32,000 nucleotides of DNA from Candidatus Brocadia sp. (GTDB lineage: Bacteria; Planctomycetota; Brocadiia; Brocadiales; Brocadiaceae). Made by a program: the position numbers and the translations under genes. The notes under the pieces are model-generated. The model had not been told where the DNA came from and searched no databases. It worked only from the letters and a program-made list of their open reading frames with translations. Shown here piece by piece: positions 2,912 to 32,000 of the stretch. Numbering within the stretch: position 1 is the first letter of the stretch; each line of letters opens with the position of its first letter. The stretch spans positions 3,630,001 to 3,662,000 of the forward strand of contig CP091279.1 of NCBI GenBank assembly GCA_021650915.1, read 5' to 3'.

Positions 2912-3226
2912 TTATTGAAGAAAACCAGCAGGCAAATGGTTGCAGGCAAGCCAGGAGCGCATATATTGTCTCATATCCAACGCGTCCTTGTCTCGCTGTG
3001 TACCGTTATTACGGTGCGTGTCATGGAAAGATCTCCTGATAAAGTGCTTAATCCTCGCTGCTTTTGCAGCCGTTGCCAGAATTTTACCATGCCGTGTTTC
3101 TCTGGTGAGCCCGCGTTGTTTAACCGTTCTGAGATGAGCGATCCGGAGAACTCCCTGAAGTAGCTTATTTTCTGAAGTATGATCGCTAAAAACTTGTTTT
3201 GCTACGAGATCCCTTTTATTTACCAT
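2912..3226 (-). CDS. Small basic hypothetical protein (104 aa from internal ATG; ORF-track version starts at 3262)
   Basis: A strong SD (ACAGGAGGAAACATT-ATG) precedes the ATG at 3226 (MVNKRDLVAKQ...). It sits about 75 nt downstream of the leader terminator. No family recognised. Confidence 0.55.
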   Translation of the reverse strand: MVNKRDLVAKQVFSDHTSENKLLQGVLRIAHLRTVKQRGLTRETRHGKILATAAKAARIKHFIRRSFHDTHRNNGTQRDKDALDMRQYMRSWLACNHLPAGFLQ

Positions 3227-3300: not shown

Positions 3301-3353
3301 TAAAAAAGCCTTACTGCAAAGATATTTTGTGAAACATCTTCGGCAGTAAGGCT
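3301..3353 (-). terminator. Intrinsic terminator / expression platform of leader RNA copy A
   Basis: The minus strand reads AGCCTTACTGC-(25-nt loop with inner AAGAT/ATCTT pairing)-GCAGTAAGGCT followed by a T-run. The stem sequence is identical to the terminator at 28138-28191. Confidence 0.65.
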
Positions 3354-3361
3354 ATCTTTTT

Positions 3362-3458
3362 CGCGGGGGGGAGAGGCGCGTTGCCACGCGCCTTTACCTC
3401 ATATCCGTCAAAAGACCCTTTCCTTTGCGTCCCCTGATTGCCCAGGGTTTGCCTTTGT
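3362..3458 (-). promoter_or_regulatory. GEMM-I (c-di-GMP-I)-like riboswitch aptamer candidate, copy A
   Basis: The minus strand reads AAAGGCAAA-CCCTGG-GCAA-TCAGGG-GACGCAAAGGAAAGGGTCTT. This matches the 5' half of the Vc2 c-di-GMP-I aptamer as I remember it (GGCAAA, 6-bp stem, GNRA loop, 6-bp stem, GACGCAAAG). The 3' half is not obviously canonical. A paralogue lies at 28018-28100. Confidence 0.5.
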
Positions 3459-3684
3459 CGTAATGTTCTTCTCTTATGCTTGTTTGTAAAATGTCATTGC
3501 TTAAAACAGAAATGAAGATACTCTATCATAGATAACTAGGTATCTCAAGTAAAAATAAAATTATTATTGCATTAGCACATTTTAGTATGGTCAAATAAAG
3601 GACCGAAAATTTCAGGGTGCTGCCGGTATTGTTATTACGTATCGATGGTGCACTCATTCCAGCGAAAACAAAGGAGGGTTTGAT

Positions 3685-5611: not shown

Positions 5612-7361
5612 TGTCTTCTCCTTTGGCAGGGGATTTTTTAAACTTATCCGCAAAACCCTTTGTCATGGCAATTACGGTTTTCCCGTCATTGTCTTCATAG
5701 ATAATCATGGCATGAGCGTTGGGGATGGTCTTTGCCAGTTCCAGGCCTTTTTCGTGACCTAAAACAAAGAGGCTGGTTGAGAGTGCATCAACTTCCGTCC
5801 CAGTAGGCGCCACAACCGTTGTTGCCATGGTACCGGTTACCGGCCTTCCTGTAAGCGGGTTTATAATATGGGAATAGCGTTTTCCCTTCATCTCAAAGAA
5901 CCGCTCGTAATCTCCTGATGTAGCCGTAGCCTCATCCTTGAGTTCCAGATAACCCAGGATCTCATCCTTATTCCGTGGGTGTTGTATGCCAATTTTCCAT
6001 GCAGTTTTTCCAGGGGGTGTGCCCCACACATAAATATTTCCGCCAAGATTAATACATGCACTGCTCATATTGCATTTTTTTATGATTTCCAATGCCTTGT
6101 CGACCGCGTATCCCTTTCCAATAGCGCCCAAATCAATTTGCGTCAGCGCATTTTTAAAAAATACCGTGCCAGGCTTTTTTGGATCAGCATTTCTCTTTAC
6201 GACAATATTGTTATAAGAGACGGCCGGCAAGACCTTCTCTATCTCTTTGTCGGAGGGGATATGTCCTTTTTCGTGAAAAAACCCCCATAGAGCGACGATC
6301 GGCGAGACGGTGACGTCAAAAGCGCCGCCGCTGAGCTCGCTATAATGCTGTGATCGTTCAATCACATCAAGAAGTTCCCCCTGGCATGGTACGGGCGACC
6401 GCGCAGCATTCTTGTTGAGTTGAGAGAGTTCGCTCGTCTGCTTATAGTTACTCATAATACGGTCCATGCGTTCGATTTCATCCAGGGCTTCTTCAACGGC
6501 ATGGCCGGCAGCTTGCTCGTCCCCGGAATATACCGACACTTCAGCAAAGGTACCCATGATCATACGGGTTTGCTTCACCATTTTTATTTCAGGAGAGACG
6601 TCTTTGTGGTTTTCCGTTTCTCTTTTCTTGTGTTCTGTGTTTTTTTGAGCGTTCGCTGTCCCGTCGTTCGTGGTCTGAGATGTATTTGCTACGTGCACCG
6701 GTTCTGTTTTCAGAGGCAGGGCGACAGGTTCCGTGGTACGGGTGGTTGTATGCGCCGTTCTTTTCCCGCTGAGATAGTATGCATCAATAACAGCGAGCAC
6801 CTTTCTCACGCCTGCGCACATGTATTGAACAGACATGGTAGCGCCGGTGACATTAATGATGTCTTTGTTTATGCGAAGGGGATTTTTCAGAGACTTGCCC
6901 ATGAATTGATAGAGAAAGCGTTTTCTGGTAATTTCTGCGCCGCGGCTCTCACGGTAAACAAGGACTGCAACGTCCTTGATCTTTCCCGCCGGGGTTACCC
7001 CAACAATAAAGGTAAAGGGATGAAACTTGCCGATCTCCTCGGTAATAATTGCGTATGCCTGAATAGCGCCCTTCTTTTTCCCAAGATACACCTTAAATCT
7101 ATCCTCATAGAGTCTTCTGCTCAGAAGTTTTTCAAGGTTGTTTTTTTCTTCAGGGGACATAAAAATCTCGTCGGTTGTAATTTCATCACATCCGTGAAAT
7201 ACAAGGTCGAGCGCTTGTTCTTCTGTAAGGTAGGTCTGGATTTGAAAATTCTCTGCCGGTTCTGTCTCTGTTTTGGCCTGTATGGATTTCGAAATGAATG
7301 GAGTCAGCGCTCCTGCGAAGGAGAAAAGGGAAAAGAGAAAAATTATTCGTTTTGAAGCCAT
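5574..7361 (-). CDS. apbE: Fusion protein: signal peptide + FMN-binding domain (RnfG/NqrC/NosR-type) + ApbE FAD:protein FMN transferase
   Basis: 595 aa. The N-terminal signal is MASKRIIFLFSLFSFAGALT. The FMN_bind-like domain carries the flavinylation-type motif INVTGATMSV. A T/P/E-rich linker follows. The C-terminal ApbE body includes GAFDVTVSP, IDLGAIGKGYAVD, INLGGN and TSGDYERF. Confidence 0.88.
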   Translation of the reverse strand: MASKRIIFLFSLFSFAGALTPFISKSIQAKTETEPAENFQIQTYLTEEQALDLVFHGCDEITTDEIFMSPEEKNNLEKLLSRRLYEDRFKVYLGKKKGAIQAYAIITEEIGKFHPFTFIVGVTPAGKIKDVAVLVYRESRGAEITRKRFLYQFMGKSLKNPLRINKDIINVTGATMSVQYMCAGVRKVLAVIDAYYLSGKRTAHTTTRTTEPVALPLKTEPVHVANTSQTTNDGTANAQKNTEHKKRETENHKDVSPEIKMVKQTRMIMGTFAEVSVYSGDEQAAGHAVEEALDEIERMDRIMSNYKQTSELSQLNKNAARSPVPCQGELLDVIERSQHYSELSGGAFDVTVSPIVALWGFFHEKGHIPSDKEIEKVLPAVSYNNIVVKRNADPKKPGTVFFKNALTQIDLGAIGKGYAVDKALEIIKKCNMSSACINLGGNIYVWGTPPGKTAWKIGIQHPRNKDEILGYLELKDEATATSGDYERFFEMKGKRYSHIINPLTGRPVTGTMATTVVAPTGTEVDALSTSLFVLGHEKGLELAKTIPNAHAMIIYEDNDGKTVIAMTKGFADKFKKSPAKGEDNVKWYVVASHKQ

Positions 7362-11237: not shown

Positions 11238-11939
11238 ATGAAAGATGACGGAAGGAAGCTGTCAAGGGAGGTATTGGAGTCTTATCGAATCCGGGCGATC
11301 ACGCTCAGGGATAAGATGCATTATTCCGTTAAAGAAATAGGCGAGATATTTGGCATTAAGTATGAAAGTGTCTCAAGGTGGTTCTCTCAATACCGTCGTG
11401 GTGGTATAGAGGCGCTTAAGGAACGCAAAGCAAAGGGCAAGGCGCGAATTGTAAATGCGGATGATTTAAGATGGTTGCAAAGTGTTTTGCAGAATGTCGC
11501 GACAAAATATGGTTTTTCGACTCCGCTGTGGACCGGAACATATGTTAGAATTCTTTTCCGGCGAGAAGGAAAAGTGAATTTGGATCGCAGCACAATATGG
11601 CGATATCTGGTTCGGTTGGGTTTGAGTTTTCAAAAGCCGGAAAAACGTTATTCACAGCAAGACATGGATTTGGTAAAGACATGGATTAGCAAGGAGTGGC
11701 CTGAAATTCAGAAGTGGGCTCAGAAAAACCGGGCTATTATCTATTTTGAGGATGAGTCGGGCGTTTCCCTTGCGCCTGTTATTGGAAAAACATGGGCTCC
11801 GATAGGAGAAACCCCCGTTGTGCGTGTGACCGGGAAACGGGCGGCGTTTTGGCCATGTCGGCGATTTCGCCATCTGGCAGGATGTGTTTCCGTCTGGAGA
11901 AACGAAAAGTTAACGCCCAGGTTCTTATGGAATTTCTGA
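11238..11939 (+). CDS. IS630-family transposase, N-terminal part (HTH domains and first catalytic D)
   Basis: Winged-helix/HTH region (YSVKEIGEIFGIKYESVSRWFSQYRRGG) and IYFEDESG. After ...PVVRVTGKR the homology continues in the -1 frame. Confidence 0.8.
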   Translation: MKDDGRKLSREVLESYRIRAITLRDKMHYSVKEIGEIFGIKYESVSRWFSQYRRGGIEALKERKAKGKARIVNADDLRWLQSVLQNVATKYGFSTPLWTGTYVRILFRREGKVNLDRSTIWRYLVRLGLSFQKPEKRYSQQDMDLVKTWISKEWPEIQKWAQKNRAIIYFEDESGVSLAPVIGKTWAPIGETPVVRVTGKRAAFWPCRRFRHLAGCVSVWRNEKLTPRFLWNF

Positions 11940-12247
11940 ATCAAATTAGCGTGCAACATCCGCGGCGTAAGGTGGCGGTGATCATGGACCAAGCGCCTTG
12001 CCATGTTGCCAAAAGAATTAAAGCATTGAATGAGGGGTCATCGAAGCTACGCGTATTCCATCTGCCGCCGTATTCACCGGATCTGAATCCGGATGAAAAA
12101 GTTTGGCGGCATATGAAGCATGTCACGCTAAAGAATCACCAGGCACAGAACAAAAAACAACTTGGACGTTTAGTCATTGGAGCGCTTAGAAAAATACAGA
12201 AGAACCCTGAATTGACCAAGAAATTCTTTGAGAATTATTTAACATAA
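11792..12247 (+). CDS. IS630-family transposase, C-terminal part (second D and E of the DDE triad), -1 frame relative to 11238..11939
   Basis: GGVLAMSAISPSG..., VIMDQAPCH and LPPYSPDLNPDEKVW. The frame junction is near 11838-11842. Confidence 0.8.
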   Translation: MGSDRRNPRCACDRETGGVLAMSAISPSGRMCFRLEKRKVNAQVLMEFLNQISVQHPRRKVAVIMDQAPCHVAKRIKALNEGSSKLRVFHLPPYSPDLNPDEKVWRHMKHVTLKNHQAQNKKQLGRLVIGALRKIQKNPELTKKFFENYLT

Positions 12248-12275
12248 TCAATGCAACGAACTATATTTCAGAAAA

Positions 12276-12434
12276 TTACAAAAGGTTGTGATTAATAATT
12301 TTGCCATCTCCCGAAACATCTTCCATTCCTATAAATGTAACTGACTCCTCACAGCCAATTGGCTTGCGAGACGGCCTTATTTGGCACAAGCCCCCCAATT
12401 GACAATTATCCATTTTCAATTTTTCATTACTCAT
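12276..12434 (-). pseudogene. hsdS: Type I R-M specificity subunit (hsdS) N-terminal stub, about 52 aa
   Basis: MSNEKLKMDNCQLGGLCQIRPSRKPIGCEESVTFIGMEDVSGDGKIIN resembles the start of an HsdS target-recognition domain. SD GGAGGTGG lies upstream. It overlaps the yhcG end, stops after 52 codons, and the IS630 end is 13 nt away. Confidence 0.5.
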
Positions 12435-13042
12435 TACCACCTCCCGCTGTTCTGCCAAGCTCGGCTTCAATCTCCTCAATGCTCGGCAGGCCGGATTTCA
12501 GGTTTTCCGGCAATGAGCGGGTCGGTTCATATTCGGATATACCGATGGGTTTATGCATGTCTCGCAATGCATACTCGGCAAGAACCCTGTCTTTCGTTTG
12601 ACACAAAATAAGGCCAATAGTAGGTTGATCGGTCGGGTGTTTGAGCATGTCGTCAATTGCGGAACAGTGAAAGTTCATCTTCCCCGCGTATTCCGGCCTG
12701 AAGTCCCCTTTTTTCAGCCTGTTGTAATTGTGCCACAGCCTGTGGCATTATTGGCAATATGTTCGGATATTCACGATAAAAGCGAAGCATTCGCTTGATG
12801 TTCCGCTCTGAAAATCCTTTCTCTTCCGGTAACTCATTTCGTATATCTCTGGCAAGACGCGGAATAATCGTGGCTCCCCACCCTTCACGATCTTGCCTGT
12901 CCTGAATCATTCGCCCGATGTCCCTGTACATCAAAATCATCTCCGAGTTTGCGGAAAGCGTTGCTTTAACCTGCGCCTGGCGAATGCGGGTTTTAATATC
13001 GCTCAATAAGACGCCGTAGAATTCACGGCTGTTCATTTCCAT
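12427..13042 (-). pseudogene. YhcG/DUF1016 PD-(D/E)xK nuclease-family gene with an internal deletion/frameshift
   Basis: The N-terminal ORF 12653..13042 (ILMYRDIGRMI...WGATIIPRLARDI...GFSERNIKRMLRFYREYP) and the C-terminal ORF 12427..12678 are in different frames. My in-frame read upstream of the latter gives LKKGDFRPEYAGKMNFHCSAIDD...PTIGLILCQTKD...PIGISEY. Together they give about 210 aa against about 350 expected. Confidence 0.65.
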
Positions 13043-13247
13043 ACCAACCCCATTTTCTTCAGGTGCCCGTGTACCTTTTTCTCTAACGCATCCACTTCAG
13101 CAGTGATGGCAGGCAATGGGGCTTCATGGCGTTCTGCCAGTTCTTTGATGCGTCCCGTAAGCCGCTGGCTGATACGCTCCATTTCAGTTTTTATATCCCT
13201 TTCAAGCGCGGCCATCCATTTATCTTCTATTATAAGAATCTTTTTTT
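13033..13247 (-). pseudogene. hsdM: Displaced 3' end of hsdM (last about 71 codons), separated from the body by the IS66 insertion
   Basis: ILIIEDKWMAALERDIKTEMERISQRLTGRIKELAERHEAPLPAITAEVDALEKKVHGHLKKMGLVWK. It joins in frame to ...TEAEKK at 14967 once the IS and one TSD copy are removed. Confidence 0.8.
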
Positions 13248-14966
13248 GTAACTATTCAGCGTAATATCGCCCCCTATCGTTACGAGCTGGCAAAATCAGG
13301 CAATTTGCCGCGAAATACCATCCGTAATGCCTGACTTAAATTTACCCCTTGTTTTCGACAAGTCGAGAGATAACTACGGATGAGGCAGAAGATCTTCGCT
13401 CCGTCCAGAGAACGAAAACAGCCCGATATCTTCTGCTGAACCTTCGTCATCCTGATATCGTTTTCGGCCAGGTTATTCGTGAAGGGGACGTTTTTATTGT
13501 CCATAAATCTGAGCACATCACCCTCATACTCCCGTAATCGTTCCAGGAGATTCCGTGCTTTTGTCCTTTTTACCCGCCCTCTTTTCCCCTTGCGGTTCGT
13601 TTCATCAGGGGGCGGGCTTTCAGCTTCTGCGTTTTGTAATATCCCCCGGTACCTTTGCCGGTATTTCTCAGACTCGCCGTTTTCCAACAAACCCCCCGCA
13701 TCCTTTACCGCACGGTTTATCTCTTCGAGCAGGGCTTTCATCTCTTTCGCCCACGGTTGCTTCTTATCCTCTTCCCACACCCCCTCCAATTCCCTCAGGT
13801 GGTGTGCATTACAGAGCGCATGTGTACAGCGGGTGTAGGTGTAATACGCCTTCAAATGGTCGTGACAAAGAATCCCCCGAAACTGGGGCAGTATCCCGAT
13901 ACTATCCATCGCTTCCGTCCCACGTCTTTCGTGAGGGAAAAAGTGTGTCCACAAACTATTGGATGCACTATGCAGCCAATACCTGTCTCCGTTCTTGTTG
14001 ATGCTCGTTTCATCTGCCTGCAATACCTCTGATTTGACAAGTTCTTCCTTGGTTTTCCTCTCGAAGGCTTCCAGAGATTCGTAGGCATCCTTGTTAAAGT
14101 TGTAAAGAGAGCCTTCGCTCAGCGGTATCCCCATCTGCTCCTCAAAATACTCCTGGATCCTCTTATAGGGTATCAATTGATACTGTGACATATATACTGC
14201 GTGCGCTTTCAAATCCGGCCCATACTGCACTGCCTTTGTCACCCCTTCCGGAAATGACGCTACAAACCTACTTCCCTCCGCATCCTCAACTATCTCTGCC
14301 CGATACTCCGTTACCACCCTTGAAATCTTCATATCAAACACCTGACGCGACTCATAACCGATCAACCTGTATTTGCCGCTCGGATACTTCCTCCGGTCTA
14401 CTTTTATTACTTCCACCTTATCAGGATTGGCTACCTTTTTCAGCGTTACTCCATCATGACCCTCTTGCCCACCTGCCTTCCTCTCTCCTTTCGCCCTGCT
14501 CTTTCTCGTGCGATTCGGATCGCTTGCGGGCGGCTTACTACTGTTGCGACTGTTCCGGTTCAGACGTCCTACCAGCAGCGTTATCACTAACACCAACAAC
14601 TCTATCATTGACCTTATGGCAGGTGACAGACCTTTTTCCTCTGAAAGCAGCTTTTCTACTTTCCGCAGCGTTGCATCTATATCTATATTCTCTATCGTCA
14701 ATGGATGGCACCGGTATTAATAGCCTGAAATCATCTCCTGCGGCTATTATACCACAGGCTTTTTCACCCATTTTTTTCACCCTCTACCGCCCTACAAAAC
14801 TCTGTAATTCTCTGGCCGAACATACCCCACACCTCTCTTTGCAAAAACCTCCGATGGGCTACAGTGGCATCCTCCACAGCCATTTATTCTACCAACCAAT
14901 TCTACGGCCCCCTTTTCTCATGTTGACTGTCAACTAAATTCTAAAATATTTTCGCTGAATAGTTAC
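13248..14966 (-). mobile_element. IS66-family insertion sequence, single-ORF type (1719 bp)
   Basis: Perfect 14-bp terminal inverted repeats: GTAACTATTCAGCG at 13248-13261 and its reverse complement at 14953-14966. An 8-bp direct target duplication CTTTTTTT lies at 13240-13247 and 14967-14974. Confidence 0.9.
13280..14701 (-). CDS. IS66-family transposase
   Basis: 473 aa. It has an N-terminal coiled coil and a basic region (NSRNSSKPPSDP-like). The DDE core includes LQADETS, ILCHDHLKAYY, CNAHHLREL and FTNNLAENDIRM, all typical of IS66 TnpC-type transposases. Confidence 0.9.
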   Translation of the reverse strand: MTIENIDIDATLRKVEKLLSEEKGLSPAIRSMIELLVLVITLLVGRLNRNSRNSSKPPASDPNRTRKSRAKGERKAGGQEGHDGVTLKKVANPDKVEVIKVDRRKYPSGKYRLIGYESRQVFDMKISRVVTEYRAEIVEDAEGSRFVASFPEGVTKAVQYGPDLKAHAVYMSQYQLIPYKRIQEYFEEQMGIPLSEGSLYNFNKDAYESLEAFERKTKEELVKSEVLQADETSINKNGDRYWLHSASNSLWTHFFPHERRGTEAMDSIGILPQFRGILCHDHLKAYYTYTRCTHALCNAHHLRELEGVWEEDKKQPWAKEMKALLEEINRAVKDAGGLLENGESEKYRQRYRGILQNAEAESPPPDETNRKGKRGRVKRTKARNLLERLREYEGDVLRFMDNKNVPFTNNLAENDIRMTKVQQKISGCFRSLDGAKIFCLIRSYLSTCRKQGVNLSQALRMVFRGKLPDFASS

Positions 14967-17186
14967 CTTTTTTTCGGCTTCAGTAAGGGTCTTGTATTTA
15001 TCAAAGACCTTTTTCTCCAGGGCGGCCTGTGCATCTCTGATTTTCTTGCTTTCTTCAGCTTCCTGTTCTGCCAGCTTCACATATACCTTCAATATTTTTA
15101 ATTCTTCCTTGTCCTCAATTGTCCCTTGTTCATTATCCATTGTCAATTCTTTAACGCGTTTCTGCACACTGGCCTTAGTAATCTTATCCTTATCGTTTTT
15201 GGCATCGGCCATTAGCCCTTCTTCCCCGCCGTGTTCCTCTTCCATCTCTTCCATTTGTCTGACAATCGCATCACGGTCGGCCTCTAAATTATCAATGGCC
15301 TTTCGCTCTGTCGCAAAATAGCGGGCAACGATAAGCCCTTTGGGTATGAGGCGCCCTTCCCATTGTTTTTTATCTCTTTCTAATTCTCTCCCCACTTCCC
15401 ACCAGTCGCTTACCAGGGCATACACGTCATCCTGCATGGTTTCAGACCAGTAAACCATGAGATGCTGGTAAACATCGTATTTGTCGATCAGCTTTAAGCT
15501 GGAAAATACTTGCAGTAAATCTTCCGAGATTTCGTGTATCAGTTTTTTGGGTTTATCGCCAACGGCAATGCCTCTCAGTTTTGGTATGTTTTTGCTTTTC
15601 CATTGACTGAATACGGTGTCTACTTTTTTACTGTAAGCAGTAAACTCCGGGTGAGAGAAAATGCTGGGTTTTATGGCATCATGGGCAATAAGCAGCTTGC
15701 TGTAATTGACACGGTTTCCCGTCGTGAATAATGTCTTTCTCAGGGTCGGATAAACGTCCCAATACAAGTGCAAGGCGTCAATATCGTCATTGGGTATACC
15801 GCCCAGCAAATGCGCCTCAATATGCTGAATGTCCTCGCCCTCCTGGCTATCAATGTAGCGGGGGATATTCAGGTTAAACTCATTGGCCTCGATCTCCGTT
15901 ACCGGCGCCATGCGGCTGTATTTTTCCATTTCGAGCTGTTTGTTGAATACATCCACGATCTTGTGGATGTCCTGTTCCCGCAGGCGGTTTTTGTTGCCGT
16001 CTTTCTCGAAACCCTTGCTGGCATCGACCATGAAAATGCCTTTGCGGTGTTCTGCGCCTTCTTTATCAAGCACAATAATGCAGGCGGGGATGCCGGTGCC
16101 GTAAAAGAGGTTGGGAGGCAGGCCGATGATGCCTTTGATGTATCCCCTGCGAATGATATTTTTTCTTATTTCCCCCTCAGCGCCGCCGCGAAACAGCACC
16201 CCATGCGGGAGGATCACGGCGCCCTTGCCTTTGCTCTTTAAGGAGCGGATGATGTGCAGAAGAAAAGCATAGTCTCCATTTTTCTTCGGGGGTATACCGT
16301 AATCCTTGAAACGATCGTGGATATCGGATATGGTTCCATCCTGAACGGCAAATCCGTTACTCCATGCCTTGTATGAGAAGGGCGGATTGGCTACCGCAAA
16401 GTCAAAGGCCTTAAGTCTGCCTCTTTCGTCCAGAAACAACGGGCCGGAAAGGGTGTTCCCTTGTTTGATTTCTGCGGTCGGGTTGTTGTGCAGAATCATA
16501 TTCATGCGGGCAAGGGCGGCGGTGGCCACGTCCATCTCCTGCCCGTAAATCGTCATACCCGATTCTGATTCATCGGCCACCTTGAGCAGTAGCGATGCAG
16601 AGCCGCAGGTGGGATCATACCCTGTTGTTGATGGCGTTATTTTTGAGTTAAAAGTGATAATCTTCGCCATTATCCGGCTTACCTCGGCGGGGGTGTAGAA
16701 TTGTCCTTTGCTCTTGCCGCTCTCGGTGGCAAAGTGACGCATCAGGTATTCGTAGGCATCGCCAAGGATATCGTCCCCTTCTGCCCTGTTCTTACTGAAA
16801 TCGAGCGCCGGGTTTTCAAAGATGGCGATGAGATTGGAGAGGCGGTCAACCATCTCCTTGCCGCTGCCCAGTTTATCGGCGCTGTTGAAGTCGGCGACAT
16901 CGATGGTGCCGGTAAGCTTGTTGGCTTCGGCGATTTTTCTGATGATCTTCTTGTTAATGTCATCGCCAATGGTGGGCTTGCCTTTCAGGGCAACCATGTC
17001 TTGAAAGCTGGCGCCTTTGGGCACCGTAATAGGCGCATAGGGAACCCCGGCATATTTGTCAGAGATGTATTTGATGAACAACAGCACCAGCACATAGTCT
17101 TTATACTGAGAGGCATCCATCCCGCCGCGGAGTTCGTCACAACTTGCCCAGAGGGAGCCGTAGAGCTCAGATTTTTTGATAGCCAA
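14934..17186 (-). CDS. hsdM: Type I restriction-modification system methyltransferase subunit HsdM, C-terminus disrupted by IS66. The native sequence ends at 14967; the last 10 codons and the stop are IS-derived.
   Basis: HsdM N-terminal domain (MAIKKSELYGSLWASCDELRGGMDASQYKDYVLVLLFIKYISDK). AdoMet motif YDPTCGSASLL. Catalytic NPPF in VANPPFSYKAW. The C-terminal coiled coil is cut at EAEKK by the IS. Confidence 0.9.
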   Translation of the reverse strand: MAIKKSELYGSLWASCDELRGGMDASQYKDYVLVLLFIKYISDKYAGVPYAPITVPKGASFQDMVALKGKPTIGDDINKKIIRKIAEANKLTGTIDVADFNSADKLGSGKEMVDRLSNLIAIFENPALDFSKNRAEGDDILGDAYEYLMRHFATESGKSKGQFYTPAEVSRIMAKIITFNSKITPSTTGYDPTCGSASLLLKVADESESGMTIYGQEMDVATAALARMNMILHNNPTAEIKQGNTLSGPLFLDERGRLKAFDFAVANPPFSYKAWSNGFAVQDGTISDIHDRFKDYGIPPKKNGDYAFLLHIIRSLKSKGKGAVILPHGVLFRGGAEGEIRKNIIRRGYIKGIIGLPPNLFYGTGIPACIIVLDKEGAEHRKGIFMVDASKGFEKDGNKNRLREQDIHKIVDVFNKQLEMEKYSRMAPVTEIEANEFNLNIPRYIDSQEGEDIQHIEAHLLGGIPNDDIDALHLYWDVYPTLRKTLFTTGNRVNYSKLLIAHDAIKPSIFSHPEFTAYSKKVDTVFSQWKSKNIPKLRGIAVGDKPKKLIHEISEDLLQVFSSLKLIDKYDVYQHLMVYWSETMQDDVYALVSDWWEVGRELERDKKQWEGRLIPKGLIVARYFATERKAIDNLEADRDAIVRQMEEMEEEHGGEEGLMADAKNDKDKITKASVQKRVKELTMDNEQGTIEDKEELKILKVYVKLAEQEAEESKKIRDAQAALEKKVFDKYKTLTEAEKKVTIQRKYFRI

Positions 17187-20739: not shown

Positions 20740-21777
20740 TTACAGGAAGGCCTTCTCTAATTCTCCAAGAATGAGTTGCTGCACTTCGGCAATAGTGCCT
20801 TGTATTTCACAGCCGGCGGCATACTTATGGCCGCCGCCGCCAAACTTTTTTGCAACGTCGTTTACATTAAACCCATTTCTGCTTCTGAAACTTGCCTTAA
20901 TCCAGTTGGGTTTTGTCATCTCACGGAGCAGCACCCCAACGGTCACCCCCTCGATTGACACGGGAATGTCGGCAAATTCCTGCGTGTCGATAGCGTTGAT
21001 CTTCGCCTTCTCCAGCATCTCTTTTGTCAGCCAGATGACGGCAATCCGGTTCCCGGCGTGGAGGCCGACCGTGTTGAGCACCCGGGCGCGCAACTGGATC
21101 AGGGGAAAACTATTCGTGTTGTAAACATTTTTCGAAATTTCTTCATGCCGTGCACCGCGTTCAATGAGAAATGCAGCAGCCCTGAGCGCCGCAGGGGTCG
21201 TATTGCTGTGGGTAAACCGGCCCGTATCCGTTACGATTGCTACATATAAGGCCGTTGCCATATCCGGGGTAATATCAATGTCCATCTCCCTCAAAAGAGT
21301 CAGAACAATTTCCCCCGTGGCGCACATATCCTCCGCAACCCAATTGACCGCGCCAAAATATTCATTCGAGATGTGATGGTCTACATTGATAATTTTCGCA
21401 TCTTCGGGAATAATTTCCTGTATCATGCCGAGACGCTCAAGAGTGGGGCTATCGAGGGCAAAAACAACCTCTGCGCGATCTTTTGGGGAATCTGGGTAGA
21501 TATAAACCCCTTCCGGCGGAATGATGAATTGATACATCTGGGGAGTTGGGGAATCGTTGGCGATACAGACCGTTTTTCCCATGCTCCTGAGGGCATGATA
21601 GAGAGCCACTTCCGATCCGATACCGTCTCCGTCTGCCCGGACGTGGGTAGTAATGAGGAAGCGCTGATAGCGTTTTACCATGCTACAGATTTCTTCCCCA
21701 TGCATCTTGACGATCGTGTCTTCCACTGGTTTCCCTCCCCTGATCAGAACGCAACATCGTGCGCTGAACACAGTCAT
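20740..21777 (-). CDS. nrnA: DHH/DHHA1 phosphoesterase (NrnA-like oligoribonuclease / pAp phosphatase)
   Basis: HVRADGDGIGS, NVDHHISN and GGGGHKYAAG (DHHA1). The track ORF extends to 21942, but homologues are about 320-345 aa. ATG 21777 follows GGAAGA; 21705 is an alternative start. Confidence 0.82.
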   Translation of the reverse strand: MTVFSARCCVLIRGGKPVEDTIVKMHGEEICSMVKRYQRFLITTHVRADGDGIGSEVALYHALRSMGKTVCIANDSPTPQMYQFIIPPEGVYIYPDSPKDRAEVVFALDSPTLERLGMIQEIIPEDAKIINVDHHISNEYFGAVNWVAEDMCATGEIVLTLLREMDIDITPDMATALYVAIVTDTGRFTHSNTTPAALRAAAFLIERGARHEEISKNVYNTNSFPLIQLRARVLNTVGLHAGNRIAVIWLTKEMLEKAKINAIDTQEFADIPVSIEGVTVGVLLREMTKPNWIKASFRSRNGFNVNDVAKKFGGGGHKYAAGCEIQGTIAEVQQLILGELEKAFL

Positions 21778-21964
21778 TTTGTCTTCCATTCGTTGCCAAG
21801 AAAGGGCGATTATAGGGGAAACAGAGCCCTTTGTCAAACCTTCTTTTCCCTTGCATTTTATTCGTTGATACGTTACCATGAGAATTTGTAAGAAAATTGT
21901 TTTTTTCTCATAATCTTCATGGTGAAATAATCTCAAGAGCATTGTTTAAAAAGGCAGGGGTGAT

Positions 21965-25326: not shown

Positions 25327-25327
25327 T

Positions 25328-25610
25328 GTAACAATGTAGCTTTTTGAAAATTTTTCGTATCTCTTCAGCGTACTTTCGCTCACCATCACTACGAGTGAAC
25401 AAAATAGCGCTTCTTTAATCCCGAAGGGATGTCATGATTATAGCATATCGTTATGCAATTATGGTCAACCCCGTAAGGGGTGACATAGTATCGCTATTTT
25501 CCCGATATTTCACCCCTTACGGGGTTGAATAAGGTGGCATGGACAAACTCTGTTTGTCCGTGCTGAACTACTATAAATCACAAATTGTGAGCCTGTGGAG
25601 TATAAATTGT
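25328..25610. repeat. Composite hairpin-repeat block L, the inverted partner of 28215-28707
   Basis: It contains a GTAACAATGTAGCTTTTTGAAAA terminus and an IS66-TIR-like GTATCTCTTCAGCGTAC. It also has the arm AATCCCGAAGGGATGTCATGATTATAG and the hairpins CAACCCCGTAAGGGGTG/CACCCCTTACGGGGTTG and GGACAAAC-TCT-GTTTGTCC. About 88% of roughly 205 bp match the reverse complement of 28497-28710. Confidence 0.75.
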
Positions 25611-25721
25611 TAGTTTTTAGTCTGGTCATTCCCGCCCGGGGAAATTTTATCCTGCAACACCGGAGAGACAGTCTTCATCACCTTGCTATTTTTTAAAACG
25701 GAAGGAATTTTTGAATCTCTT

Positions 25722-26763: not shown

Positions 26764-27207
26764 TTAAGTCTTATATATGAGGGCTAAGAATCTTGTTACA
26801 GAAATGACGGATATACCGTACTGTATCAAGAAAGAGGAAACCGATTTGTCAAACTTAATATCATCGTCTCTTGTGACAAGAAATGCTGTTTGTCCCTTTA
26901 TCGCTGTTTCAATGATGAGGTTATCATCTTTATCCCGGCAAATAGCAATATCTCCCGAGAGTAAAACAGATTCTGCCCGTTCTTCTACCAGTATTAAGAG
27001 TTCTTTAATATCGTTTTCGGTAATCCCATATTTATCTTTTATCCTTGGACGGTTAAGAACATCTGCAAGTTCTTCAAGTATAGGTTCTGAAATGACAGCA
27101 AGGAAAGCGCCTTCTTCAAAGGATTTTCTTAGTCTGGCGGGAAATCCGAATGGATTAAGCACAGAAGATACCCATATATTGGTATCAATAACAGCCTTAA
27201 CGGCCAC
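26764..27207 (-). CDS. PIN-domain toxin (putative ribonuclease of a type II TA pair)
   Basis: 147 aa with AVIDTNIWVSS, ISEPILEEL and FLVTRDDD acidic motifs. It overlaps the upstream antitoxin gene by 11 nt. Confidence 0.85.
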   Translation of the reverse strand: MAVKAVIDTNIWVSSVLNPFGFPARLRKSFEEGAFLAVISEPILEELADVLNRPRIKDKYGITENDIKELLILVEERAESVLLSGDIAICRDKDDNLIIETAIKGQTAFLVTRDDDIKFDKSVSSFLIQYGISVISVTRFLALIYKT

Positions 27208-27436
27208 GTTTTTCTTTTCTAACCTCTTCTATAGCATGGGAAATATCAGATTCTATTTCTTCCGGGGTGTATTGCTTCGTTGTTATATGTATTTTCCCAA
27301 TAATGCGATTAAAGCGGTTCTGCCAGTCATCAAGAGAGATGATCTTGATTGCAACCTTTTCATGCTCTTTGACCTCAATGTGCTGCAGTGGCTTAAAAAC
27401 ACCATTTTCAAAGATAGCATCTATTACTTTAGACAT
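27197..27436 (-). CDS. DUF104/AF2212-like antitoxin
   Basis: MSKVIDAIFENGVFKPLQHIEVKEHEKVAIKI is the signature N-terminus of DUF104 antitoxins paired with PIN toxins. The track ORF starts 25 codons earlier (27511). Confidence 0.75.
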   Translation of the reverse strand: MSKVIDAIFENGVFKPLQHIEVKEHEKVAIKIISLDDWQNRFNRIIGKIHITTKQYTPEEIESDISHAIEEVRKEKRGR

Positions 27437-27548
27437 AATTTTGTAACCCCGATATTTGAATATAAATCTTTGTAAGATTTTACTTGTAATGCATGAGGTG
27501 TTTTTTGTCAAGAAATATTTGTTGCAGCAAGGTAAGGGTAAGCATTAT

Positions 27549-27635
27549 CCAACCCGAACGAGTCGGAAAAGCGAGTCAACCCTGTCAGGGTTATGTCTAT
27601 TCACATTTTTGCCAATAATGTCAAAGTATTTTTTA
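27549..27635. repeat. 87-bp direct repeat, copy 2 (upstream of the antitoxin gene)
   Basis: Direct-repeat partner of 26657-26743. The palindrome AACCCTGTCAGGGTT is at 27578-27592. Confidence 0.8.
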
Positions 27636-27944
27636 TGAAACACTCATTCCTGATTTTGATTTGTTCTCTGTATTATAGTATTACTCTGCAAAAACTTCCT
27701 TTTTCTGTAATCTTTTCTTTGTGATCTTTGTGTAAAACTTTGCGTTCTTTGTGGTTGAACTTTTTTGGTTGCGGCTGTGCTGCGTTATGCGATAATTATC
27801 CATGCATCAACAATACACTGGTGACTACATACTCGTCTGCAAAAAATGCTAACTGCCACGATATTAAACACTTATTTGTTTTGCTTGAGGTGAGCGTCCA
27901 TTAATGAACCGAAAGGTTCGGGGATGGTCTCTGTTAGTTTTTTG

Positions 27945-27972
27945 TTGCAAAATAATTATTTCAAGGTATAAT
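27945..27972 (+). promoter_or_regulatory. Near-consensus sigma70-type promoter
   Basis: TTGCAA (27945-50), a 16-nt spacer, then TATAAT (27967-72). It lies about 45 nt upstream of the GEMM-like aptamer. Confidence 0.55.
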
Positions 27973-28017
27973 GATCGAGCGTTCTTTTTTATTAAGAACC
28001 TACGATGGATAGCTTGA

Positions 28018-28100
28018 TAAAGGCAAACCCTGAGCAATCAGGGGACGCAAAGGAAAGGGTCTTCCCCTGTACAGGGTAGTAGAGGGGTAAAATAACAGGT
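28018..28100 (+). promoter_or_regulatory. GEMM-I (c-di-GMP-I)-like riboswitch aptamer candidate, copy B
   Basis: AAAGGCAAA-CCCTGA-GCAA-TCAGGG-GACGCAAAGGAAAGGGTCTT. The architecture is the same as copy A. The innermost stem pair is A-T here and G-T in copy A. Confidence 0.5.
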
Positions 28101-28137
28101 TGTTACGTATACGGAAATACGGGTAGCACAAAAAGAT

Positions 28138-28191
28138 AGCCTTACTGCCAAAAAATATTTATATAAATCTTTGGCAGTAAGGCTTTTTTTT
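28138..28191 (+). terminator. Intrinsic terminator / expression platform of leader RNA copy B
   Basis: AGCCTTACTGCC, a 22-nt AT-rich loop, GGCAGTAAGGCT, then T8. Confidence 0.7.
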
Positions 28192-28214
28192 GGCTTTTTG
28201 GTGAAATTCATTTT

Positions 28215-28707
28215 GTGATAACAATTTATGCTCCACAGGCTCGCAGTTTGTGATTTATAGTAGTTCAACACGGACAAACAGAGTTTGTCCATGCCACCTT
28301 ATTATCAATTTATACTCGAAGGGTTCATAAACAATGATTTCTAACATTTCACATAACTTTTGTTCACATAAATGGTTAAAGTGTTTCAAAAATCACATTT
28401 TGTGAACTCCCCGAGTATAAAATTCATATTTTATGAGCATCTTGAGTATAGTTTTTTTTAAAATCCCGAAGGGATGACATGATTATAGAAAAAACACACC
28501 ACCCTATTTAACCCCGTAAGGGGTGAAATATCGGGAAAATAGCGATACTATGCCACCCCTACGGGGTTGACCATAATTGCATAACCATGTGCTATAATCA
28601 TGACATCCCTTCGGGATTACAGAAGCACTATTTTGTTTATGCGTAGTGATGGTGAGTGAAAGTACGCTGAATAGTTACGAGAATTTTTCAAAAAGCTAAA
28701 TTGTTAC
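28215..28707. repeat. Composite nested hairpin-repeat block R, the inverted partner of 25328-25610
   Basis: It contains the reverse complements of the L-block modules. The long hairpin arms are 28463-28489 and 28592-28618 (AATCCCGAAGGGATGACATGATTATAG / CTATAATCATGACATCCCTTCGGGATT). An inserted palindromic element lies at about 28309-28450. TACGCTGAATAGTTAC (28663-28678) is identical to the IS66 end. Confidence 0.75.
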
Positions 28708-28800
28708 ATTTCGTGAAAGAGGGGCAATTGCAACAAAAGGTGGACATGGAAATGGCTGAATATCAAATTTTTTATTTTAGAGAAGAGGAGGAAATGACGT

Positions 28801-31800
28801 ATGACGATTAATAAAAAGTCTCGAACAACACCATCGCTGTTGAGCGCCATGGTGTTCATATGTGCGGTTTTTATGGTGACCTTATGCGGGACAGGAGTTA
28901 CCTATGGACTTACCCATAGCAGTAATATTACCAGTGATGAGACGTGGTATACCGCTGACAACCCCCATATCGTTACAGGAGGCATACACGTATACAACAA
29001 TGCTACATTAAAGATAGAGGCCGGGTGTCAGGTAAGGTTTGATCCAGGAGCAGTCCTTTACTTCGGGTATTACAGCGGGGCTGCCCTGAACGCCACGGGT
29101 ACAAGCCTTAATCCCATCACCTTTACCTCAAACGCGGCGACCCCTGCGCCCAATGACTGGGATGGAATCGTCTTTTTCAACTCCACAGATGACGCCTCAA
29201 CGATTATGGACTATTGCACGGTGGAATACGGCGGGTATAGCGCTTATCAATCCAACATCTATTGCAACACCGCATCGCCTACCATCCAGAATTGCACCAT
29301 CCGGCACTCTGGCGAGTATGGGATATATTGTGACAACTATTCAGCCCCTACGTTAATCAACAATACGATAAGCAATAATGGCTGGTTCCCGATAACTTTA
29401 AATTGCAACAATCTGGACACCCATGTGGCGGGCAACACGGGGAGCGGCAACGGAACGGATGCCATTGAGGTGCGGGGCGGAGGTATTACCTCGAGCCATA
29501 CCTGGGTTCCGCAGGATTTCAACTTTACTGTAACGGATAGTATACATGTGTACAATGATGCCATTTTGACGATAAACCCCGGATGTCTTGTGAAATTTCG
29601 TCAAGGGACAGGGCTTTACATCGGGTATTACAGCGGGGCAACCTTGAATGCCACGGGTACAAGCCTTAATCCCATCACCTTTACCTCAGGTGTAGCAACC
29701 CCTGCGCCTGATGACTGGGAGGGAATCGTTTTTTTCAACTCCACAGTTGACGCCTCAACGATTATGGACTATTGCACCGTGGAATACGGCGGGTTTAGGA
29801 GTTATCATTCCAACATCAATTGTAATAATTCCTCGCCAACCATCCAGAATTGCACCATACGTTATTCTGACGAGTATGGGATATATTGTGACGACGCTTC
29901 AGCCCCTACGTTAACCAACAATACGATAAGCAATAATGGCGCCTTCCCGATAAGCTTGTTCTGCAACCTGCTGGATACCAATGTGACGGGGAATACGGGG
30001 AGCAGCAACGGAACGAATGCCATTGAGGTGCGGGGCGGAGGTATTACCTTAAGCCGCACCTGGGTTCCGCAAGACTTCTACTTCAATGTAACGGGGAGTG
30101 GTATCCATGTATTTAGCGACGCCATATTGACAATAAACCCGGGGTCTCTGGTAAAGTTTAACGCTATGACAGGCCTTTACATCGGGTATTACAGCGCTGC
30201 TACCTTGATCGCCGATGGCACGAGCGGCAATCCCATTACCTTTACCTCAAATGGGGCAACTCCTGCGCCTGGTGGCTGGGAGGGAATCGTTTTTTACAAC
30301 TCCACAGATGACGCCTCAACGATTTTGGACTATTGCACCGTGGAATACGGCGGGTATGACACTTTCAATTCCAACATCAATTGCGACCAGGCTTCGCCTA
30401 CCATCCAGAATTGCACCATACGGCACTCTGACGGGTATGGGATATATTGTGATAACGGCGCAGCCCCTACGCTTACAAACAATACGATAAGCAACAATGG
30501 ATTATTCCCCATAAGCGAGTTCTGCAACACGCTGGACAGCAATGTGACTGGGAATACGGGGATCGGCAACACGCCAAACGCCATTGAGGTGCGGGGCGGG
30601 AATATAACGTTAAGTCATACCTGGGTTCCGCAAGACTTCTACTTCAATGTAACGGGGAGTGGTATCCATGTATTTAGCGACGCCATATTGACAATAAACC
30701 CGGGGTCTCTGGTAAAGTTTAACGCTATGACAGGCCTTTACATCGGGTATTACAGCGCTGCTACCTTGATCGCCGATGGCACGAGCGGCAATCCCATTAC
30801 CTTTACCTCAAATGGGGCAACTCCTGCGCCTGGTGACTGGGAGGGAATCGTTTTTTACAACTCCACAGATGACGCCTCAACGATTTTGGACTATTGCACC
30901 GTGGAATACGGCGGGTATGACACTTATAATTCCAACATCAACTGCAATCAGGCTTCGCCTACCATTCAGCGTTGTCTCATAAGAAATTCGGATGGCTATG
31001 GAATTCATACAACGGGTAGCGGCGCACAGCCATTGATTTCTTGTTCAACGATAACGGACAACACACATGGCGTCTATGTAGCTAGTGGTAATCCAACCAT
31101 AGAAAATTGCAGCATTGCAGGCAATACAAGTTACGGAGTTTTCACTAATACATTCATTTATGCAGAAAACAACTGGTGGGGTAATGCCAGCGGTCCATCC
31201 GGCGTTGGACCAGGCTCTGGCGATGCCGTCAGCAGCGATGTGGACTATACCCCATGGTTAAGCGCGTATAACAGTTGTCTTGAGACGATTGTTTTAAGCC
31301 CGTCATCTGAGACGAATCTTATCGGCACCCAGCATACCGTTACTGCGACCGTGACAGATGATGCTTCTGACCCAATGGAGGGTATCGTGTTATTTTTTTA
31401 CATTACCTCTGGCCCACACGCAGGGCTAAATAGTAATGTTACAACGGATTCAAATGGTCAGGCGACGTTTACCTACACGGGGACGCTGGAAGGCACGGAC
31501 ATAATTGAGGCGAGTTTTACCGATTTTCACGGGCGGACCATAACATCAGGTCCGGTCACAAAGACGTGGGAATCGTTACCACCGACTCCAACGCCAACGC
31601 CTTCACCAACGCCGACACCGGAGCCAACACCAAGTCCAACACCGTCTCCAACACCGGAGCCAACACCGAGTCCAACCCCAAGTCCAACTCCGTCTCCGAC
31701 ACCAAGTCCGACCCCGACCCCTGCAGCATGTCCTTGTCCGGACGCAGAGGCATGCTATTCCTTTGACGAAGGGAATGGGAATGTGGCTGGCGACTCGTCG

Positions 31801-32000
31801 GGCAATGGTCATAACGGCGCAATCGCTGGCGCAAGCTGGACCATCGGAAATGACGGCAGTGGTCTGAGTTTTGACGGGGTTGACGATGAGGTATCAATTC
31901 CGGTCCTGAACAGCGAGGAAGTCTCCTTCAGCGCATGGTTCTATAAGAATGCGAATAATCCGTTGAGATATAGTTTCATCTTCGACGGAATCAGGACGCA
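28801..32000 (+). CDS. Large secreted/surface protein: signal peptide, tandem right-handed parallel beta-helix modules, Ig-like domain, PT-rich linker, LamG/concanavalin-like domain. The 3' end lies beyond the window.
   Basis: Absent from the ORF track (no stop in the window). ATG 28801 lies 8 nt after GAGGAGGA. My translation begins [32 protein letters not shown]. Repeats of ...[39 protein letters not shown]...[24 protein letters not shown]...[16 protein letters not shown] follow. Then come [11 protein letters not shown], an Ig-like segment ([22 protein letters not shown]...ATFTYTG), the (TPSPTPEP)n linker, and [30 protein letters not shown]...[14 protein letters not shown]. Confidence 0.85.
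28984..31000 (+). repeat. In-frame tandem repeat, period 558/561/561 bp, about 3.6 copies
   Basis: Unit starts (the IHV... codon) are at 28984, 29542, 30103 and 30664. Copies 3 and 4 are almost identical over about 340 bp (30058-30400 versus 30619-30961). Confidence 0.9.
31579..31722 (+). repeat. Pro/Thr/Ser-rich linker encoded by short degenerate tandem repeats
   Basis: [48 protein letters not shown], encoded by reiterated CCAACACCGAGTCCA-type units. Confidence 0.9.

Follow-up and report, generated by a model that had tools for sequence, protein, structure and literature searches.

Positions 27945-28191 of the window, by which we mean the whole 32-kb stretch of Candidatus Brocadia DNA analyzed here, lie ahead of a plus-strand gene that starts at ATG 28801 and encodes a beta-helix protein. 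This protein combines a signal peptide with four Beta_helix repeat units, a Big_1 domain and a linker rich in Pro and Thr; a complete version of 1197 amino acids, encoded in a further assembly of the same species (L008), also carries a C-terminal Laminin_G_3 (ConA-like lectin) domain. A first-pass annotation of the segment had proposed a promoter, an aptamer block and a terminator, and all three elements were found where it had placed them. Judged from its sequence, the segment probably comprises promoter and leader of a class I cyclic di-GMP (c-di-GMP) riboswitch of canonical type (GEMM-I, RF01051), which is predicted to control the beta-helix gene.

The entire window was scanned on both strands against the 4227 families of Rfam release 15, using the curated thresholds. 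Two matches were obtained, both spanning the full RF01051 model (28012-28152 on the plus strand and 3339-3463 on the minus strand). The match ahead of the beta-helix gene scored 54.8 bits (gathering threshold 35, E-value 2.9e-8), so that the covariance-model check proposed in the first-pass annotation came out above gathering. Identical matches are present in four further assemblies of the same species (L008, L009, L011 and L012), which are equal in length and score and hence carry no covariation information. The idea of a cyclic-dinucleotide riboswitch leader composed of promoter, GEMM-I aptamer and terminator is supported by the RF01051 match, by covariation within the family and by the orthologous locus, as described below.

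In the RF01051 alignment, the aptamer is built from two adjacent hairpins with a short outer helix closing them, and the conserved GACGCAAAG junction is placed by the same alignment. The block AAAGGCAAACCCTGAGCAATCAGGGGACGCAAAGG at 28019-28053 forms the 5' half of the match. It contains the six-base-pair stem and GNRA loop that had been described before (CCCUGA/UCAGGG with GCAA). A receptor for this GCAA tetraloop could not be identified from the sequence; by the rules of GNRA docking, the conserved C-U/A-G step atop the P2 helix is a candidate site. The canonical 3' strand, earlier thought to be missing, is GAUAGCCUUACUGCC at 28135-28149. It had been hard to spot because an apical P2 insertion of 71 nucleotides (nt) shifts the strand downstream. 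The inserted segment folds into two predicted sub-hairpins (approximately 28064-28087 and 28101-28129), and homologous inserts occur in three other loci (L066, L049 and L050). On the opposite strand, an open reading frame (ORF) of 84 amino acids covers both aptamer and terminator (28038-28292, corresponding to 8281-8535 in L011). It is a called gene in a public assembly, has no Pfam match and is almost certainly a spurious gene call.

The predicted promoter sits 40 nt 5' of the aptamer. It scores 10/12 and is the top sigma-70-like site within 27000-29200, and its -35 and -10 boxes line up with TTGACA and TATACT-like boxes in the orthologous leaders L066 and L049, which come from two other Brocadia assemblies. 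Between the -10 box and the aptamer there is a small hairpin, GTTCTT-N7-AAGAAC (27981-27999, plus strand), in a part of the leader whose alignment with these two leaders is poor. At the other end of the locus, a mini-ORF of five codons (28794-28811, plus strand, ATG ACG TAT GAC GAT TAA) overlaps the gene start in another frame; the Shine-Dalgarno spacing favors ATG 28801 over this mini-ORF. Several NCBI assemblies have contigs that encode proteins identical to those of the window, among them GCA_000987375.1 (Candidatus Brocadia fulgida), and all named relatives are species of Candidatus Brocadia (Planctomycetota).

Table 1. Positions of leader, aptamer, ligand-contact and gene features in the window.
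Feature	Position	Strand	Details
Sigma-70-type promoter	27945-27972	+	-35 TTGCAA 27945-27950, N16, -10 TATAAT 27967-27972
c-di-GMP-I (GEMM-I) aptamer	28012-28152	+	Full-length RF01051 match, model positions 1-87 of 87
G equivalent to Vc2 G20	28022	+	Alignment to RF01051 and RF03167 consensus; predicted ligand contact
First aptamer hairpin	28028-28043	+	6-bp stem CCCUGA/UCAGGG, GCAA (GNRA) tetraloop 28034-28037
C44 and A47 equivalents	28046-28049	+	By alignment: C28046 pairs interhelically with G28139 (G83 equivalent); A28049 intercalating
P2 5' strand AGGAAAGGGUC	28051-28061	+	RF01051 alignment; includes conserved G.A mismatch
Insertion in apical P2, 71 nt	28064-28134	+	RF01051 alignment; consensus there about 17 nt
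Aptamer 3' strand GAUAGCCUUACUGCC	28135-28149	+	P2 3' strand; G83 equivalent 28139, C92 equivalent 28148; common to terminator 5' arm
Intrinsic terminator, predicted expression platform	28138-28191	+	5' arm 28138-28152, loop 28153-28169, 3' arm 28170-28184, T8 28184-28191
C92 equivalent	28148	+	Alignment to model consensus
Spacer (long leader), 609 nt	28192-28800	+	Largely dispersed hairpin repeats
Start of gene predicted to be regulated	28801-32000	+	Shine-Dalgarno GAGGAGG 28785-28791; gene extends past window end
Second, paralogous c-di-GMP-I riboswitch	3302-3463	-	Aptamer 3339-3463, 58.1 bits with RF01051; shared-strand terminator 3353-3302

Related leaders and orthologous genes

One genome per species was searched with the exact pattern GGCAAACC-N4-G-N2-A-N4-GGGACGCAAAGGAAAGG. 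The search gave 57 matches in 53 loci, a census that is a lower bound since the pattern is exact and includes the GGAAAGG base of P2. All matches came from records titled Candidatus Brocadia, Jettenia, Loosdrechtia, Brocadiaceae bacterium or Planctomycetes/Planctomycetia metagenome-assembled genome, with at least 10 in Brocadia sp. DTUAMX2 and at least six in the complete genome of B. pituitae. The tetraloop is GYRA in every copy (57/57), the P2 insertion varies from 25 to 240 nt, and about 50 of the 57 copies carry a terminator that is built on the same aptamer strand. A compensated change in this terminator, with CCUUCCUG facing CAGGAAGG, was found in L031, L032 and L046.

Covariation was examined in an alignment of 52 distinct trimmed cores. 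Overall, 93.6% of the cells were paired and seven pairs had changed on both sides; none of 500 shuffles was as good, and controls with slid partners reached only 26-47% pairing. The first hairpin showed two-sided changes in four of its six pairs, with 99% of the cells paired, and the outer helix did so in all three of its pairs. The window copy itself has a U-A pair in the outer helix where the family has C-G.

The genes that follow these RNAs were examined as well. Downstream sequence was long enough in 46 members; 27 of these have an ORF of at least 100 amino acids on the same strand within 150 nt of the terminator, and 37 have one within 400 nt. Most members precede genes for surface proteins, amidases or pili. 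The examined products include large and apparently secreted repeat proteins (BACON; SBBP propeller with DUF7948 and CBM9; Kelch; M23 peptidase with Ig). Others are a recurrent Amidase_2 protein of 240 amino acids, PilM and DUF1559 proteins of pseudopilin-like type; a sigma-54 activator, a CHASE2 cyclase and a contractile-sheath protein were also encountered. This is the kind of output that is usually tied to c-di-GMP.

The most conserved riboswitch-gene pair of the set involves an ORF of about 240 amino acids, which stands behind a family member in L019, L020, L031, L032, L035, L042, L046, L055, L058 and L059, representing several species. Five of these ORFs were scanned and all encode secreted Amidase_2 (N-acetylmuramoyl-L-alanine amidase) proteins. 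A perfect TTGACA-N16/17-TATAAT promoter is present in nine of the ten loci (L058 has 11/12), and its -10 box ends 14-15 nt 5' of GGCAAACC. Tandem or clustered c-di-GMP-I riboswitches were observed in L037 (3573-3711, 4106-4165 and 5197-5346) and L057 (1812-1935 and 2793-2934).

A tblastn search of the beta-helix protein against all riboswitch-linked loci gave matches in same-species assemblies only, and the link to the gene was therefore tested via protein homologues. The orthologue P0002 (75% identity; L066, GCA_026647655.1) is preceded by an RF01051 match at 2753-2894 with the same terminator, and its ATG at 3001 lies about 70 nt past the U-run; the P2 insertion of this RNA is homologous to that of the window. 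Upstream of P0004 (69% identity, L067) two riboswitches occur in series (1817-1958 and 2692-2844), and a third one (6544-6723) precedes the gene that comes next and codes for a Big_1 protein. The presence of riboswitches ahead of orthologues, together with the aligned promoter boxes, identifies the riboswitch as the ancestral leader of the gene. That a riboswitch would stand ahead of the beta-helix surface-protein gene, as had been put forward in the first-pass annotation, is thus supported by the L066 orthologue, which is located directly behind the orthologous riboswitch.

Terminator, predicted switching and the repeat-filled spacer

In the terminator, AGCCUUACUGCCAAA (28138-28152) pairs with UUUGGCAGUAAGGCU (28170-28184) over 15 bp, and with the A/T flanks included the arms extend to 22 nt at 91%. 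The calculated energy of the hairpin is -23.7 kcal/mol. The terminator and its T8 run thus agree with the earlier description; the stem is longer than the 12 bp reported there, which correspond to its G+C-containing core. Of the 15 nt in the 5' arm, 12 (28138-28149) are also part of the aptamer, where they serve as the 3' strand of P2, as the equivalent of C92 and as the nucleotide that comes first in the outer helix. Since this strand is common to aptamer and terminator, the two folds are mutually exclusive, and ligand binding is therefore expected to cause read-through, i.e., an ON switch.

A possible course of events can be formulated from this arrangement. Transcription would start a few bases 3' of the TATAAT box, and the nascent RNA would adopt the two-hairpin aptamer fold (28012-28152). 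Without c-di-GMP, the aptamer 3' strand AGCCUUACUGCC would pair with 28170-28184 to give the 15-bp terminator with its U8 tail, and transcription would stop around 28191. With c-di-GMP bound by G28022, A28049 and C28148, P2 and the outer helix would retain the strand, terminator formation would be blocked and the polymerase would read on. Binding would take place during transcription of the next ~40 nt, and the element would behave as a kinetically controlled ON switch. The read-through RNA would span the 609-nt repeat-filled leader up to the gene at 28801, and high c-di-GMP would lead to more of the secreted beta-helix/Ig-like/lectin surface or matrix protein. We infer the ON direction from the modeled folds and ligand binding by the window RNA from its sequence; the weakest step of the model is that read-through should still reach the 28801 gene across the inserted repeats.

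The inverted repeats in the spacer between terminator and gene form long hairpins (28309-28421 and 28462-28618), and the region is strongly structured (z = -7.75). The ~600 bp of repeats noted in the first-pass annotation before ATG 28801 were borne out, and the repeats are dispersed: blocks 28219-28303 and 28499-28708 recur in inverted orientation, with 92-95% identity, at 25327-25612 between thiG and hisF, and a further copy of the spacer repeat is located downstream of the gene in L008 (21959-22217). Small hairpins of the form CCC(C)-GNNA-GGG(G), set within long inverted repeats, make up the repeat, and a 27-nt arm, AATCCCGAAGGGATGACATGATTATAG, turns up again in loci of Brocadia, Jettenia and Loosdrechtia (about 96% identity). 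No Rfam family was found in the spacer, and a permissive scan of 27400-28900 gave only sub-threshold matches to microRNA-type hairpins. These were taken as chance, and the spacer was accordingly rejected as a known RNA. It contains no plus-strand ORF of at least 80 amino acids; a canonical terminator is likewise lacking, and no promoter-like site in it exceeds 9/12. The orthologous L066 leader lacks the spacer; as its alignment with the window leader shows no reliable homology past the terminator, the comparison indicates a difference in length and does not define insertion boundaries. We read the spacer as a lineage-specific insertion of repeats resembling repetitive extragenic palindromes or miniature inverted-repeat transposable elements (REP/MITE-like) into the leader.

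Several observations weigh against the riboswitch model as a whole or against parts of it. The gene starts 609 nt downstream, while the family median is about 45 nt, and the inserted structured block could impede read-through or hold its own promoter; three weak promoter-like sites (9/12) are indeed present in the spacer (28232-28261, 28423-28452 and 28550-28577). The match of the leader promoter is by itself statistically ordinary, with four promoter-like sites against 6.6 expected within 27000-29200. Two remoter relatives of the gene, in L068 (B. carolinensis) and L069 (50% identity), have no riboswitch upstream. Furthermore, P2 shows no variation among the family members, in part as a consequence of the search pattern, which requires it, so that this helix gains no covariation support and its pairing rests on the Rfam model. 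Finally, the unconstrained minimum free energy structure of 28012-28192 combines the first hairpin with the terminator (-65.5 kcal/mol), whereas enforcing P2 gives -40.4 kcal/mol. The terminator fold is thus favored over the aptamer fold by about 25 kcal/mol, and switching must therefore be kinetic; kinetic control is an assumption of the model.

The question of read-through to the gene is also the basis of the main alternative, in which the riboswitch is intact but was uncoupled from the gene by the repeat insertion of ~560 bp. It would then make only short terminated or read-through non-coding RNA, possibly acting in trans or as a c-di-GMP sponge, and the gene would be transcribed from a promoter in the spacer. 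We regard this as unlikely. The length of the spacer (609 nt, against 13-150 nt in most family members), its dispersed repeats with a counterpart at 25327-25612, its very strong structure and the weak promoter-like sites would all fit such uncoupling. However, aptamer, terminator and promoter are intact and the aptamer scores like those of family members that abut their genes. The spacer offers neither a canonical terminator nor a promoter of 10/12 or better, there is no ORF between riboswitch and gene, and long leaders of ~590 nt or more occur in five family members. The arrangement is also kept at 99.3% identity in the four other assemblies, which is weak evidence because they are of the same species.

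Ligand specificity and comparison with known systems

The numbering of Vc2, the Vibrio cholerae structural reference, follows our own mapping onto the Rfam consensus. In Vc2, G20, A47 and C92 contact c-di-GMP, and an interhelical C-G pair is universally conserved (PMC4744006). The equivalents of G20, A47 and C92 and of the C44-G83 pair are all canonical in the window RNA. Across the family the G20 column is invariant (52/52), as are the A47 and C92 columns, and the interhelical C-G pair is kept in 51 of the 52 relatives. An altered ligand specificity, which the first-pass annotation had considered on the basis of the seemingly absent 3' strand, therefore finds no support.

A GEMM-I specificity variant, sensing 3'3'-cyclic GMP-AMP (cGAMP), another dinucleotide or the ligand of the 'GGC' variant family RF03167, is very improbable. 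The permissive scan did give RF03167 a score of 57.2 bits on 28013-28153, slightly above the 54.8 bits of RF01051 and near its own gathering value of 59, and the P2 of this clade is unusual in that it is invariant, contains a G.A mismatch and has a large insertion. Yet 57.2 bits stays below that gathering value, and the diagnostic nucleotides point the other way: position 20 is G and not A, position 92 is C, and position 47 is A and not the G of the RF03167 consensus. Binding of cGAMP goes along with A20, and the G20A substitution confers it on Vc2 (PMC7288161), so the cGAMP (GEMM-Ib) reading was rejected in view of G28022. The 'GGC' reading was rejected on account of A28049, the sub-gathering score and the fact that RF03167 passes gathering on A47-bearing relatives as well, which means that the score is no indicator of the variant nucleotide. 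The position that defines GGC was deduced by comparing the consensus lines of RF01051 and RF03167, as the main text of the source paper contains no such definition.

The relatives with A47 on which RF03167 reaches gathering are L056 (2729-2833), L047 (1604-1714), L057 (1812-1935) and L036 (7155-7256). On these RNAs, RF03167 outcompetes RF01051 within the clan, and automated annotation would therefore mislabel them as GGC variants.

That the element is merely a dispersed genomic repeat resembling GEMM-I, with no regulatory role, has next to no chance of being right and is effectively refuted by covariation and synteny: the core is multi-copy (at least 10 in one genome) with near-identical copies, a few of which adjoin transposase genes (L052 and L060), but its stems are maintained by compensatory changes, its ligand-contact nucleotides are invariant, most copies (about 50/57) have a terminator on the aptamer strand, every copy has its own promoter, and riboswitch-gene pairs are conserved across species. 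Of the repeat scenario raised in the first-pass annotation, the multi-copy nature of the ~40-nt block was confirmed, whereas the scattered orientation was not, as copies consistently point toward downstream ORFs (within 400 nt in 37/46). Consistent orientation and compensatory changes indicate a riboswitch family and not a passive repeat.

Comparison with known systems shows where the predicted riboswitch is ordinary and where it differs. As in Vc2, the aptamer of the window RNA comprises two hairpins, and the two RNAs have in common the conserved unpaired segments AAAGGCAAAC, GACGCAAAG and AGCC...CUGCC, the contact nucleotides G20, A47 and C92 and the C44-G83 pair. The tetraloop is GAAA in Vc2 and GCAA in the window (GYRA across the clade), so the classical 11-nt receptor is not expected. 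Unlike Vc2, the window RNA has a G.A mismatch and an enlarged, branched apical insertion of 71 nt in P2, and its expression platform would be a terminator that shares the aptamer 3' strand.

The predicted regulatory logic resembles that of Bc2 of Bacillus thuringiensis. The cap gene downstream of Bc2 encodes a surface adhesin (collagen-adhesion protein). Bc2 is a class I c-di-GMP riboswitch that acts as a transcriptional ON switch (PMC11218506), the same combination of class I aptamer and transcriptional ON as predicted for the window. Bc2 comes from Bacillota and its function was tested in vivo, whereas the window RNA comes from Planctomycetota and its ON direction is deduced from the shared strand only; the window leader is, in addition, lengthened by inserted repeats. 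The GEMM-Ib 3'3'-cGAMP riboswitches of Geobacter have the same fold and have likewise expanded to many copies in a genome, where they precede genes with extracellular or surface functions. They carry A20, in contrast to the G20 of the window RNA and of all 52 distinct family members. The c-di-GMP-I-GGC variant (RF03167) has a near-identical consensus, with GACGC-G-AA where the window has GACGC-A-AA (A28049). Tandem and multi-copy c-di-GMP-I riboswitches are found in Bacillota (PMC12452182), and relatives of the window leader are also tandem (L067, L037 and L057); the window locus differs from these in having a single aptamer.

Other features of the window and implications

The second RF01051 match of the window (minus strand) uses the same design, with aptamer and terminator sharing a strand. 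It precedes an ORF of 104 amino acids (3226-2912) with a weak NmrA-like match, followed by a flavodoxin-like (FMN_red) gene (2809-2195). B. pituitae (L014) and Brocadia sp. DTUAMX2 (L065) share this riboswitch together with the small ORF, at 54-56% protein identity.

Upstream of the beta-helix leader, and divergent from its promoter, public gene calls include a pair composed of a PIN-domain toxin (26764-27207) and an AF2212-like antitoxin (27197-27511), both on the minus strand. A plus-strand ORF of 232 amino acids (26777-27475) was rejected as a gene, since none is on record there and it overlaps the PIN and AF2212-like genes. Six kb upstream, a minus-strand gene encodes a DHH/DHHA1 phosphoesterase (20740-21942). 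Proteins of the DHH/DHHA1 type include NrnA-like nanoRNases that degrade pGpG, the breakdown product of c-di-GMP; a link between this gene and the riboswitch locus would be pure speculation. A cluster of mobile and defense genes occupies 11238-17186. It contains an apparently frameshifted IS630-like pair of helix-turn-helix and DDE_3 ORFs (11238-12247), an IS66-family transposase (13280-14701, minus strand) and an HsdM methylase of a type I restriction-modification system (14934-17186, minus strand). This stretch is absent from the otherwise syntenic L008-L010, which have a helicase-C gene in its place.

From its sequence, the window RNA is a member of RF01051 on every criterion that can be applied, and for riboswitch biology the finding is routine, because a curated model detects the RNA and all of its defining nucleotides are canonical. 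In a literature search, we found no paper on riboswitches in Brocadia, other anammox bacteria or Planctomycetes. A much bolder view would be that the Brocadiaceae copies form a structurally distinct GEMM-I sub-class, characterized by an invariant P2 with G.A mismatch, only GYRA loops and a hypervariable apical insertion of 25-240 nt (branched in the window), and that the resulting change in tertiary architecture would alter ligand affinity or specificity or allow a second input. Such RNAs, at 10 or more copies per genome, would then be the principal c-di-GMP effectors in anammox bacteria and would directly drive a program of surface proteins and amidase for granule formation. We consider this a long shot.

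Anammox bacteria are not available in pure culture, and industry employs them in the form of granules or biofilms. A correlation between c-di-GMP levels and the quantity of matrix polymer has been described for anammox granular sludge (PMC11224092). The window locus and its 57 relatives name candidate outputs of c-di-GMP in these organisms, i.e., beta-helix/lectin, SBBP-propeller, Kelch and BACON proteins, a peptidoglycan amidase and pilus components.

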